Of a DNA stretch of 64,000 nt, positions 11,595 to 22,993 are shown piece after piece (the stretch's first letter is position 1; each line of letters opens with the position of its first letter). A model generated the notes under the pieces. The model did not search any database and was not told the origin of the DNA. It worked only from the letters and a program-made list of their open reading frames with translations. This stretch comes from Eledone cirrhosa. Lineage: Eukaryota. The stretch spans positions 115,444,001-115,508,000 of the forward strand of contig OZ024743.1 of assembly GCA_964016885.1 (NCBI GenBank). Reading direction: 5' to 3'. The position numbers were made by a program, and so were the translations under genes.

Positions 11595-11822
11595 AACGAA
11601 GGAAATGTGGTAAGGAACCAGGTGGACCATAACGCACCAAAGTACTCAATACTTGAGGTAGTAGAGTGGGTAATAGGAACCAGTAAGACCCCGACAGCTG
11701 AGCTCAAGCCGTTTCGACGGCTAATTCTGGACTAAATGAACATTTATCCTAAATGTTCATTTAGTCCAGAATTAGCCGTCGAAACGGCTTGAGCTCAGCT
11801 GTCGGGGTCTTACTGGTTCCTA
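11595..11822 (-). mobile_element. Fold-back element family C, copy 1 (HHR 3' half)
   Basis: Perfect palindrome 11674-11822 containing GAAACggc-ttgagctca-gctGTC-ggggtc; (TA)n on both sides. Confidence 0.85.
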
Positions 11823-12460
11823 TATATATATATATATATATATATATATGCATGCTACTGTACGTCTGTATACATATATGTATGTACGTATACACACATA
11901 CTTACATTTAAGTAAGTGCCGTACTAAGAGTGAGAAATGAAATTTCGTTTTCATTTTATTTCAACTTATATATATATATGTATATATATATATATTCATT
12001 ATAGCGCTTCTTTGTCGTACTATCTTGCCTATCGAATGCAATCGATTTGGTAGAAACTTAGGCGTATACCAAAAAAAGCCTTATAAGTTTACCTATATTC
12101 TAGTTTGTTGCGCATAGTGTAATATATTGAATAGTGGTCTTAGTGGACTTATCTAGTGACGTCTCCACACACACAGACAGACAGACACGCACACACACAC
12201 AGAAACACACATACACATACATACGCACACACACACAAACACACGCACACACACACATATATATATATATATATATAGTTATTTATTACTCTAACATCTG
12301 TCTTATCAGAGAGACTATTTTATTTCTGCTTGAAACTTCCAGACACATTGTGAAGCCAAACAAAAAAAAAATTAGCTGGAAGTAAATACGTAAGTCTGGC
12401 GCTTCGAGGAAAAAGCTACTCCCTTAGAAACCTTCCTTATTCGCAGAACCACAATAGCAT

Positions 12461-12509
12461 CCGGGTGAAGTCGCTGTGTTTCATTGATATTGCAAATTCA
12501 TCAGTCCGG
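12461..12509 (-). ncRNA. Degenerate hammerhead-like motif in a probable PLE 3' fragment (~12290-12910)
   Basis: Reverse complement reads ccgga-CTGATGA-att...aat-GAAA-cacagcgacttca-cccgg; stem III does not pair well. Confidence 0.4.
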
Positions 12510-13299
12510 CCATTTGTTAATAGTTTTATTCCATCTCATCTCCTTTATAGAAGAACTCTAAGGAAAGGGGTAATAATTAAGGGTTAAATATATTGTAGGT
12601 TTGTGTAAAAGAACAGATAAAGGGAGCACAAAATATGCGGTACAATGGAGAAAGTTATTTTGATAGAATGTTATTTTGAAAATTATTTTGAAAAAAATAT
12701 AGATCAAGAGCTAATGTAGGAATAAATGTACAGGAAAGAGGTGTGAGAGAGGGCAATGGCGACGTTAGGTAGCTTGCTGAAAGTTAATTAGAGAGTCTTT
12801 GGAAGTTAGGAGTACTTAATGCAAAATGAAAGATATTAAGGAATAACGTTTGTCGTGTGAGTGTTAGATCCGTCACGATGAGGTATACATTTTGAGGTGT
12901 ACAGATGTTTGTGTATATATATATATATATATATATATATATATATATATATATGCAGTGGTGGACTGGCCAGGATAATAGGTTGCCCAATGGGAAGTAG
13001 ATCCGTGGGGCCCGCTGTGGTAATTAGGGGCCAATGCTTTGATTTCAAAGAATATCTTTAAAAATAAGTCTAAGAGAAAGATTAAATAAAAAAAATAAAT
13101 AAATAAACATATCAGCAAAGCAGGCAATTAATAGTAACCAAAATATATGATAGTGCTACCACTTAGAATCACTGGCTGTTTAGCTTACTATGTTTTTTGT
13201 GCATACATACTTCTATACACACACATGCATACATATATATATATATATATATATATATATATATATATATATATATATATATATATATATATATATATA

Positions 13300-13505
13300 T
13301 AGGAAAACGTATGACCCCGACGGGCAGAGCTCAAGCCGTTTCGACGGCTAGTTCTGGACTCATTTCTGTCCACATATAGCCGTCGAAACGGCTTGAGCTC
13401 TCCCGTCGGGGTCATACTTTTTCCTATTTCCCACTCTACTACCCTAAGTATTGAGTACGCTGGTGCGTTATGGTCCATCTGGTTCCTTACCACAATTCCT
13501 TTGTT
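13300..13505 (+). mobile_element. Fold-back element family C, copy 2
   Basis: Inverted arm, hairpin, then GAAAC(13385)...GTC(13405-13407)ggggtc and a tail homologous to copies 1 and 3. Confidence 0.85.
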
Positions 13506-13529
13506 ATATATATATATATATATATAGTA

Positions 13530-13870
13530 TAAACAAACGAAAAATCAGTGATGCATCTAGACTCAGTTTATTGCGTATTACAATTGTTTCGCTGGCAGAT
13601 CATTATGTGGATCTGCCTGATTCTACAGCTGCAGGTTCTTCGGACACATGCAATGCTCTCGGAGCAAATTTTCTCACTGGCGTTTTAGCTTCAAAAAACA
13701 CCTTAAAAAAAACCATCTTCCACTCTTGTCTTGCCATTGGCTGTTGCTTTTCTACGGCATCATACATTCTTGTCACTATTTGCTTCCACATTGGTCATCA
13801 GCTACTCCCCCGTCCGACACACTTCAATGGAGTCATGCTGGGTTTGGTATCTCACACGTCCGCTTACACT
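13530..13870 (-). mobile_element. Family D element, diverged second copy, followed by CA-rich body to ~14540
   Basis: aaaaatcagtgatgcatct...ttacaattgtttcgc...ttctcactgg...cacttcaatg aligns with 2995-3320. Confidence 0.7.
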
Positions 13871-20900: not shown

Positions 20901-21450
20901 CCAAAATTTGCAATCTCTGTCAAAATGAAAAATTTACCATTATATCTAATTTACATTCTATAATAAATAGACGCACTGACTTGTTTTCTATCTGCTTGCA
21001 TGAATTCCATAAAACATTCCACAAAGTATACAGCTAATATCCAATTCTTTATAAATTTAGAATCTTTTTCTCAAAGGCACATATATATACACTTCTTTTA
21101 AAAATATACCCATCTTTGTATCTTATTTCAAATGTTATTATACATTCTATAATACTTGTTACTCATTCTACATCGCTCCTATTTATCACTTCCCTTTCTT
21201 CTCTTTTTCTTTTAATGTCTAACCCCTAATCTGTACCTTTTCTCACTGTTGCCTAACATAGAATCAATTATTACATAATACAATACATTCTTACTCTATA
21301 TCACCTTGTAAAAATCCTTCGTAAACATATACATTTTTTTGACGTTAGATTATTCATCCTCAATTCATTATTCTTTTCTCCCTTTCATTTAACTCATTCA
21401 TGCTCATCTCACAATATATCTTTACTTAAATAACCTATTGTTCCTTTTAA

Positions 21451-21623
21451 TAATACATATCAACATTATCTTTCCATCGCACATATTATTAAACCCTTAA
21501 ATATTATTCTTAATACATATTAACATTTTCTTAACATCGCACATATTATTAAACCCTTAAATATTATTCTTAATACATATTAACATTTTCTTTTCATCGC
21601 ACATATTATTAAACCCCTCAATA
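21451..21623. repeat. 60-bp tandem repeat (~2.8 copies) in the PLE 3' UTR
   Basis: catcgcacatattattaaaccct recurs at 21475, 21535 and 21595. Confidence 0.9.
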
Positions 21624-21979
21624 TACAAACCTTAACTTTACATTATTTTTCTCTTCGTTAATTTTCAAATTCTTTTAATTTATACATTATCTGCCAACGG
21701 TTTTCAACCTCTCTATGTAAAACAATATATCTTTCTCAGTTATTAAAAGCTATCTCTCTCTCTCTATCACACTCTCTCCTTCTATCTCATCCTTCCTCAT
21801 TATACTCCTCCCTCTCCACTTTTTACTCTCACTCCTCCTCTTTTTCATCCTTTCCAACCCCCGCCCTCAAAATAAAATATTTTTCCCAATATCACACATC
21901 AATCTAAAACTACTTCTCATATGTTGATTTAAAACTGAACTATCCACAAGTGTTTTTTAACCTTCATATCATGTCTTCC

Positions 21980-22050
21980 TGTTTTATCTGATGAAAACAC
22001 AAATATTATTGCATGATGATATTTGTTTTTGAAATGCGCATAATAAAATA
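21980..22050 (+). ncRNA. Type I hammerhead ribozyme with long stem II
   Basis: tgttttat-CTGATGA-aaac acaaatattat tgcatg atgatatttgt tttt-GAAA-tgcgca-TA-ataaaata. Confidence 0.88.
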
Positions 22051-22781
22051 CATGGAACTCTTTTAACCACCTTTTGTTCTTATATATATATATATATATA
22101 TATATATATATATATATATATATATATATATATGAGGTCGGCAGACCACACAAAAACTCTATATCTCTATGATGTAGTGTTTTTGCATAATATGCCACAA
22201 AACTACGTAGTCGGGGACTATAGGAGCAGTTTAGGTATGATATATCTTATTACTAATTATATCTAATGTTTCTTCTCTCTTCATAATGTATTATATATAT
22301 ATATATATATATATGTGTGTGTGTGTGTGTGTGTGTGGTGTTAGTACCTTTATCTGTAAACCTCGACTTAAATGATAGCGACATCTGTATTATTGCGAAA
22401 TACAAAATATATCCATATATTAATGTTTTCTTTTAATATTTTACTACTCGCCTTGTCTTTATTTGTCTCTTCTCATCACCTTTTCCATCTCTTGTTCTCT
22501 CTACCTCTCTCTCACATACACTCGCTTTCCCTCTCAACCTATATTTTTACATTTATTTAAATGTTATCGACGAAAGACAACTTTATATCTACTTCAGAGA
22601 TATCGATCTCTGAATGTAGAACAGCTAATTCTTCTCGATTGTATATATTTATATTTATATCTATATCTATATATATGTATATATGTATATATATATATAC
22701 ATATATATATATATATATATATATATATATATATATATATATATATATATATATATATATATATATATATATATATATATA

Positions 22782-22993
22782 TAGGAACAAGTATGACCCC
22801 AACGGCAGAGTTCAAGCCGTTTCGGCGGCTAATTCTGGACTTTTCTACTTTTTTGCCCCGAATTGGCCGTCGAAACGGTTTCAGCTCTGCCGTCGGGGTC
22901 ATACTTGTTCCTATTACCCACTCTACTACCCTAAGTATTGAGTACTTTGGTGCGTTATGGTCCATCTGATTCCTTACCACATTTCCTTTGTTA
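22782..22993 (+). mobile_element. Fold-back element family C, copy 3
   Basis: Same architecture as copies 1 and 2; GAAACggt-ttcagctct-gccGTC-ggggtc at 22872-22900. Confidence 0.85.

Follow-up and report, generated by a model that had tools for sequence, protein, structure and literature searches.

Inverted 5' copies, tails at one end only and TA targets have already been described for Penelope-like elements (PLEs; PMC8557442), whose promoters have been located in the pseudo-long terminal repeat (pLTR; PMC2377424), with TATA and initiator-like motifs (PMC3846280), and whose hammerhead ribozymes have been noted as pairs on opposite strands 100-700 bp apart (PMC4209133). Non-LTR retrozymes are non-coding hammerhead derivatives of PLE pLTRs (Li et al. 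2026, 10.64898/2026.07.22.740005), and in vitro the PLE protein PAc nicks and extends both target strands, at two internal sites and on an uncut RNA template (PMC11167929). The making of inverted pLTRs, one-sided tails and tandems has nevertheless been named as unsolved (PMC8557442, PMC2377424). Here we analyze a 64,000-nucleotide stretch of the Eledone cirrhosa genome (contig OZ024743.1, positions 115,444,001 to 115,508,000; hereafter the window), in which three related palindromes at 11594-11822, 13300-13506 and 22782-22993, designated family C, share 78-86% identity with one another and each lie inside a (TA)n run. Each consists of two arms in head-to-head orientation, a short and a long one, which correspond to positions +1 to +60 and +1 to +140 of the 5' leader of a Penelope-like element; the palindromes are genuine and belong to a known class, with mechanistic evidence that is unusually clear.

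Outer ends, inner boundary and ribozyme of family C

Positions are counted from the A of AGTCCAG (+1), and L numbers denote loci in the window's own genome (G000, 3.0 Gb), where the window is C4:115444001-115508000. The genome holds 38,861 exact matches to a 22-nt core with one upstream constraint and 27,951 matches to the sequence from +1 to +23, both figures counting arms rather than insertions and being lower bounds. Among the sampled loci, 63 of 70 short arms terminate at +60 and 55 of 67 long arms at +140, the others lying at most 2 nt away, and the parent sequence at these two ends (CCTATT and GTTATC) creates a TAT overlap with the target. When the small two-arm insertions are considered (45 from the first 100 genome core matches plus window copy 1; another 22 arms without a core-motif partner were treated separately), 45 of the 46 combine a short with a long arm, one is long plus long and none is short plus short, a bias with p about 7e-13 against free choice; L115 was here scored as short plus long by direct reading, the scripted scoring having given 44 short plus long and 2 long plus long. 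The same combination is found in 12 of 13 large insertions (14 regions, of which L164 is irregular and L091, whose second end is missing, was excluded), and the two arms share subfamily marks in 40 of the 46 small insertions, as compared to 23% at random. Because nearly all insertions pair a short with a long arm, these observations support two fixed priming sites, one used per target strand, as had been proposed in an earlier reading of the window made from its letters alone (the sequence-only reading); collecting copies and plotting their ends, as it had suggested, indeed places the outer ends at +60 and +140 and most inner ends at -7 to +7.

The inner ends of 126 arms drawn from the first 100 genome matches fall at -7 to +7 in 101 cases, at +8 to +13 in 10, at -39 to -8 in 3 and past -40 in 12, although matching to many references inflates the starts at -7 to -1. 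Contig word depth, which is not copy number, steps up at +1 about 10-fold in run X1 (which may be the assembly's own sample) and 14-fold in run X4, and drops about 300-fold after +140 in X1. The boundary is fixed at about -4 to +2. Its sequence, T(T/C)AGT, lies inside loop II of the ribozyme, with a second A at -4, and 49 of the 54 parent regions have a TATTTA box at -29 to -31; the two motifs resemble an initiator and a TATA box. On these sequence grounds, polymerase II transcription likely starts at the boundary, within loop II, giving a capped RNA.

Segments that reach the open reading frame (ORF) bear on the nature of this boundary. Genome-wide, 232 copies run through the long site toward the ORF; the 66 ORF-containing segments taken from 70 loci comprise 35 that reach past -40, 11 with a start at -7 to +8 and 20 with one further in. 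Fourteen of the 66 are then followed by a terminal arm in direct orientation that starts at -3 to +4, and 8 of these 14 jump segments stop again at -3 to +5. A cDNA can thus halt at the boundary without turning back, and the boundary is therefore a property of the template, which is the coding transcript, since segments holding the ORF start also end there. Of the 8 direct arms whose start falls exactly on +1 or +2, 7 are preceded by a G (p 0.003; 0.007 when the one templated G is left out), whereas G stands at -1 in 0 of 74 parent arms, which read only T or C; the extra G fits cap copying, in a small sample and a post hoc test.

The parent of family C carries a Penelope-like type I hammerhead whose self-cleavage is putative and whose parts read ACCCC, UUGANAA, stem II CGGCUA/UAGCCG, GAAA, a 5-bp stem III and GUC^GGGGU. 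The 5' strand of native stem II is G(C/A/T)(T/C)CGGCTA, followed by a loop II of about 40 nt; the U3-A8 core variant is present in 52 of 54 parent regions and G10.1-C11.1 in 51 of 54, position 7 being free. The helices are paired in 97% of cells, with no covariation found in the alignment, and the minimum-energy fold of the parent at L094 is a three-way junction, but with z = -0.57, and two other sequence segments folded differently. Cleavage after GUC (+41) would leave arms starting at +42, where no peak was found among 184 long arms (L120 is the one clear case), and many of the apparent stops at +49 to +57 among the long arms are subfamily indels; ribozyme-cut RNA was therefore rejected as the usual template.

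Formation of the palindromes

We consider it likely that, once a (TA)n run has been cut, each of its strands serves as a primer near the 5' end of the RNA, that the cDNAs run off the likely capped start and that they are then end-joined. The GIY-YIG nuclease of the element would cut both strands of the run, each target 3' end would pair with one UA site (+60 or +140) and prime there, both cDNAs, usually templated by one RNA or made by one protein dimer, would run off the RNA 5' end, and microhomology-type repair would join them. With the start inside loop II, the 5' copy would carry half a ribozyme and would therefore stay uncut. Long insertions may come from this reaction acting on the 3' repeat or on a tandem or circular RNA, or from a homologous transfer.

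The junctions discriminate between ways of producing an inverted pair. The 47 insertions show 40 distinct junctions, one same junction being found in four subfamilies, and most of them contain an overlap of 0-1 nt or a short filler; in 4,366 junctions both arms are complete to +1 with 2-30 nt between them. Common junctions fit the meeting of identical ends, as in AAATTT, which corresponds to two ends at -4, and a shared centre at +3/+4 occurs in 10 of 46 insertions. According to the sequence-only reading, the self-complementary stem II is where the two cDNAs anneal or a single cDNA snaps back, such that the ribozyme fold doubles as an integration-resolving device. Indeed, the turn falls within stem-loop II, and native stem II uses CGGCUA/UAGCCG; yet the junction expected from annealing has a single match genome-wide, either arm can be the more complete one (the long arm in 18 insertions, the short arm in 17, with 12 ties), and in 11 insertions a short arm that reaches +1 to +9 faces a long arm stopping no earlier than +25, which is too short a template for a snapped-back short arm (the reverse is seen once). 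In addition, the arms of large insertions can be very unequal in length, as in L090, in four insertions the partner of a family C arm comes from a second family, D, whose own boundary lies about 120 nt upstream of its ribozyme, and other TA-targeting families retain a complete ribozyme within each arm. Joining of separate cDNAs passes the junction tests, whereas snap-back and stem II annealing fail them, and a resolving role for the ribozyme fold is to our mind highly improbable. Self-priming on an antisense transcript has been proposed for the identical head-to-head geometry, with junction palindromes, of rotifer Penelopes (PMC3846280), but it does not predict strictly paired short and long fixed ends, joins between families or jumps from +1 in the sense orientation, and we regard it as very unlikely here. 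The condition that the sequence-only reading had named as fatal to its own model, namely a palindrome amplified as one unit in the manner of a TA-targeting miniature inverted-repeat transposable element (MITE), is in keeping with the very high copy number, the TA targets and the inverted arms; against it stand the diversity of junctions and the recurrence of one of them across subfamilies, two ends that are not terminal inverted repeats of each other, and arms that match subfamilies of an autonomous retroelement. We give that possibility almost no credence, the bulk of the palindromes having been formed anew at each insertion.

A closer competitor keeps twin priming and end joining but takes the boundary to be an RNA cut, a stop of the reverse transcriptase in the loop II hairpin, or the 5' end of a short non-autonomous RNA. 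It draws on the observation that in both main subfamilies a small apical hairpin contains +1 in its 3' strand, and on the excess of short arms, about 10 to 1, over arms with upstream sequence; however, a reverse transcriptase travelling 3' to 5' meets stem II first (+18), where few arms end, the segments holding the ORF start share the boundary, that of family D is a pyrimidine-A step outside the ribozyme, and the extra G of the direct junctions fits a cap. We therefore see this version as rather unlikely. Several observations nonetheless weigh against the run-off from a capped start that we favor. Thirty-five of the 66 ORF-containing segments cross +1 without a seam, and thus require tandem, read-through or circular templates, or homologous transfer. 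The boundary is a cluster (-7 to +7) rather than a single base, a spread due in part to chance matches to T-rich filler; TATTT is also part of stem II, such that its conservation need not imply a promoter, and family D has no TATA-like box at -30. Only 8 direct junctions bear on the cap idea, through a test devised after seeing the data, and the filler most often begins with A (73 of the first 100 junctions listed, by eye count). In inverted junctions a G stands at -1 in 5,420 of 27,951 arms (19%; 1,250 of 8,732 in a second count), but as a mark of the cap it is ambiguous, being largely copyable from the partner arm, and was discarded. Mixed subfamilies (L115) or families in some insertions imply that the source is not always one RNA. 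Finally, PAc acts without strand preference and without target homology (PMC11167929), as opposed to the strict pairing and TA overlap of family C.

We also put forward, tentatively and with more doubt than confidence, a strong-stop reading, whereby an asymmetric dimer primes two short cDNAs near the capped RNA end, +1 to +41 serves as an R region, the palindromes are failed transfers and TATCTAGCTCC is a shared signal of the long site. The R region would run from +1 to the ribozyme cut of the 3' repeat (+41), transfer of the cDNA to the RNA 3' end would rebuild the pLTR, and placing the promoter inside the ribozyme would restrict cutting to the 3' copy.

Irrespective of these details, the tens of thousands of minimal products of family C set four rules for any mechanism: the priming sites are two and fixed, each target strand uses one of them, the inner boundary is fixed, and ends are joined freely, between families as well. 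The twin-priming model would explain the long-puzzling inverted ends of Penelope-like elements. L094 represents an intact, young element usable for in vitro work, for which a conserved 11-nt motif (UAUCUAGCUCC) is offered as a mutation target. An enzyme related to telomerase that inserts RNA copies from both strands has a bearing on tools for RNA-templated gene insertion, and palindromes of this sort are otherwise liable to be annotated as MITEs or microRNA hairpins.

The parent element, the window copies and related families

An origin from a Penelope-like element, anticipated by the sequence-only reading, is borne out by locus L094, a complete element with pLTR, ATG at +232, a 719-aa ORF, 3' untranslated region, pLTR and an additional inverted copy, the tandem unit being 3,543 bp. 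The predicted protein contains the reverse transcriptase motifs FIQFD, GATDS and YRDD and a C-terminal YIG, as well as the Hydra-clade motifs (as defined in PMC8557442) RWR at 37, DKT at 117, CNCPDRSIC at 572, CNLC at 670 and CKH at 698; a CCHH motif was not found with the one simple pattern tried. Searches of Pfam and of PDB sequences gave no match, and the best of its 2,054 relatives carries PF01541. By motifs and architecture the parent is thus classed as an endonuclease-positive, apparently autonomous PLE of the Hydra clade, notwithstanding unit lengths of 3,118 and 3,543 bp that exceed the clade's size of less than 3 kb, a stated tendency and not a strict criterion. pLTRs from partial tandems, the inverted 5' copy and the optional tail are seen at L094, L160-L169, L178 and L179. 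The TA run flanking an insertion has a median of 21-22 nt per side (80 insertions), and the flank is directly duplicated in 5 of 80, for instance over 32 nt in L070; in L070, L047 and L075 a flank of 10-32 nt is duplicated directly or inverted, as if the cuts had fallen in neighbouring TA runs. The full-hammerhead parent that had been predicted does exist, but the sequence foreseen for it (gacccc-CTGANGA) has 0 genome matches; CTGANGA anywhere 4-34 nt upstream has 38, yet the family's stem I precedes it in 0 of 30 inspected, and these were set aside as filler or other elements.

Family D (2,233 genome matches) offers a comparison. Of 39 arms examined, 17 retain upstream sequence and 22 are cut; 10 of the cut arms stop at one A after TTC, 5 lie at most 3 nt above it and 7 below, and none of the 22 ends 4-23 nt further upstream. 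Its ribozyme starts at +123 and its two ends are at +222 and +321, the long one being followed by TATCTAGCTCC exactly as in family C. The same sequence stands at the long priming site of L231 (G000:C1:23549370-23552443) and L094, which represent otherwise unlike Penelope families, and is a candidate signal for the reverse transcriptase. In L033, L034, L040 and L056, the family C arms have as partners either inverted fragments from other Penelope ORFs or a third hammerhead family. L291 (G000:C2:356029300-356032700) is a retrozyme-like array born from a pLTR: its 299-nt unit, in which a complete family C hammerhead has a shortened loop II, stands seven times in tandem. At L161-L162 (G000:C1:91483500-91494600), a multi-unit tandem insertion carries, at the junction where it inverts, about 60 repeats of a 55-bp ORF piece.

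The make-up of the three window copies is given in Table 1. All three have the same outer ends (ttccTA for the short arm, cctt(t/c)gtTA for the long one) and contain GAAAC-stem III-GTC-GGGGTC, as the sequence-only reading had stated. Its further claim that the CUGANGA half is always replaced holds for these copies, in all of which that half is missing, but not for the family, as at least 2,668 + 1,316 genome arms (exact matches to the native upstream sequence in two subfamily patterns) retain the native 5' half. The hairpin gacggcta...tagccgtc is literally present in copies 1 and 2 and not in copy 3, and it is a mirror of the 3' strand rather than native stem II, the turn lying within loop II and not in the stem as had been thought; the inverted repeat continues past the hairpin: in copies 2 and 3 the short arm carries it to +1, and in copy 1 it extends as far as -13/-17. 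The tail, put at about 95 nt, is the 80-nt distance between the two TA sites.

In copy 1 the arms overlap by 1 nt, the long arm has the upstream variant TAAATGTTCATTT, also found in 5 parent copies, and the hammerhead 3' half of the short arm spans 11775-11809, with predicted cleavage after 11803. When contigs were compared with this copy, many junction types were seen, none shown to span its exact junction, and low-depth pieces from organisms B and C were given no weight. In copy 2 the first base of the filler is a G at -1 when read on the short arm, and the long arm has an internal short site near 13425, followed by the 80-nt tail. T-run fillers like that of copy 3 recur among the genome matches. 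A Rfam scan of the window returned no family at gathering score, hammerhead not being listed in the window copies, and its microRNA matches in the window are simple repeats or the palindromes.

Table 1. Family C arms, junction fillers and flanking target runs, in window positions
Feature	Position	Strand	Remarks
Copy 1 long arm	11594..11750	-	parent about -17 to +140; long TA site end at 11594-11595
Copy 1 short arm	11750..11822	+	-13 to +60; +1 at 11763
Copy 2 short arm	13300..13360	-	+1 (13360) to +60 (13300)
Copy 2 junction filler	13361..13367	.	no counterpart in parent upstream sequences
Copy 2 long arm	13368..13506	+	+2 to +140; hammerhead 3' half 13379-13413
Copy 3 short arm	22782..22841	-	+1 (22841) to +60 (22782)
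Copy 3 junction filler, T-rich	22842..22854	.	
Copy 3 long arm	22855..22993	+	about +2/+7 (decayed) to +140; hammerhead 3' half 22866-22900
(TA)n target run left of copy 1	11553..11595		right-hand run 11821-11849
(TA)n target run left of copy 2	13229..13301		right-hand run from 13505
TA-rich target run left of copy 3	22642..22783		right-hand run 22992-23050

Other insertions populate the window. Adjoining copy 1, a TA-flanked head-to-head insertion at 10785-11553 has long arms (a 311-nt perfect repeat), internal duplications and a complete hammerhead at about 11389. A further palindromic family, at 16501-16777 and 43533-43707, holds a complete CTGATGA hammerhead in its arms (16680), with related motifs at 21988, 39164 and 43666. 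Six more inverted pairs, several of them TA-flanked, lie at 2214-2628, 543-777, 7291-7392, 10352-10693, 28084-28703 and 59970-60351 and probably reflect the same process in other families. Penelope-like ORF fragments are present at 19760-20881 (34% identical to the L094 protein), 7881-8480 and 43935-44534. Three copies of an element resembling long interspersed nuclear elements, a provisional class name, occupy 28973-36772 (-), 51040-54768 (-) and 45509-49159 (+), with a 1,216-aa open frame, reverse transcriptase-like motifs and (TAA)n-rich surroundings.

Family C and described systems

L1 twin priming also starts reverse transcription from both strands of the target, and the resulting cDNAs, joined with microhomology, form an inversion; the position of the second site varies, and each cDNA represents a different part. 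In family C, by contrast, neither site varies, and one stretch is represented in both copies. The minus-strand strong-stop DNA of retroviruses and LTR elements is likewise primed near the RNA 5' end, runs off and then jumps; here, unlike in that system, the primer would be target DNA and not tRNA, two primers would be used and the jumps lead to internal positions.

A biochemical parallel is provided by PAc (Poseidon, from Anolis; Frangieh et al. 2024, PMC11167929), which belongs to another clade and whose start sites lie inside the ORF. As in family C, two tail-bounding start sites are found near the ORF start, and as in the model proposed for family C, both strands are cut and extended, the RNA template is uncut and a dimer is predicted; that paper leaves the formation of inverted repeats and junctions unaddressed.

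With respect to the ribozyme, the hammerheads described for PLEs (Cervera and de la Pena 2014, PMC4209133) share with the parent the type I topology, short helix I and long helix II, G10.1-C11.1, the palindromic loop III and the U3-A8 core variant. Family C departs from them in its 5-bp helix III, in a loop II of about 40 nt with a likely promoter, and in that most copies keep the 3' half only. Non-LTR retrozymes carry complete hammerheads in tandem (10.64898/2026.07.22.740005), an arrangement matched only by L291, whereas the window copies are single inverted pairs of half ribozymes. In the literature consulted, with subscription journals and Repbase outside its scope, we found no statement of the rule pairing a short with a long arm, of run-off at a fixed 5' boundary or of a strong-stop model.

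The Hydra clade (Craig et al. 2021, PMC8557442) differs from the family C parent in its size (generally less than 3 kb, as compared to 3.1-3.5 kb), in an RWK at the position of RWR and, as given there for PLEs, in a tail of 30-40 nt versus 80 nt; its description, in the sections of that work at hand, includes neither the fixed inner boundary, nor the pairing of short and long arms, nor the mass of 150-230 bp insertions. Both combine a reverse transcriptase with a C-terminal GIY-YIG domain, DKT, the CxCX5C linker, CxxC and CxH, and both have a hammerhead in the pLTR, (TA)n targets, an inverted 5'-truncated copy and a tail at one end.

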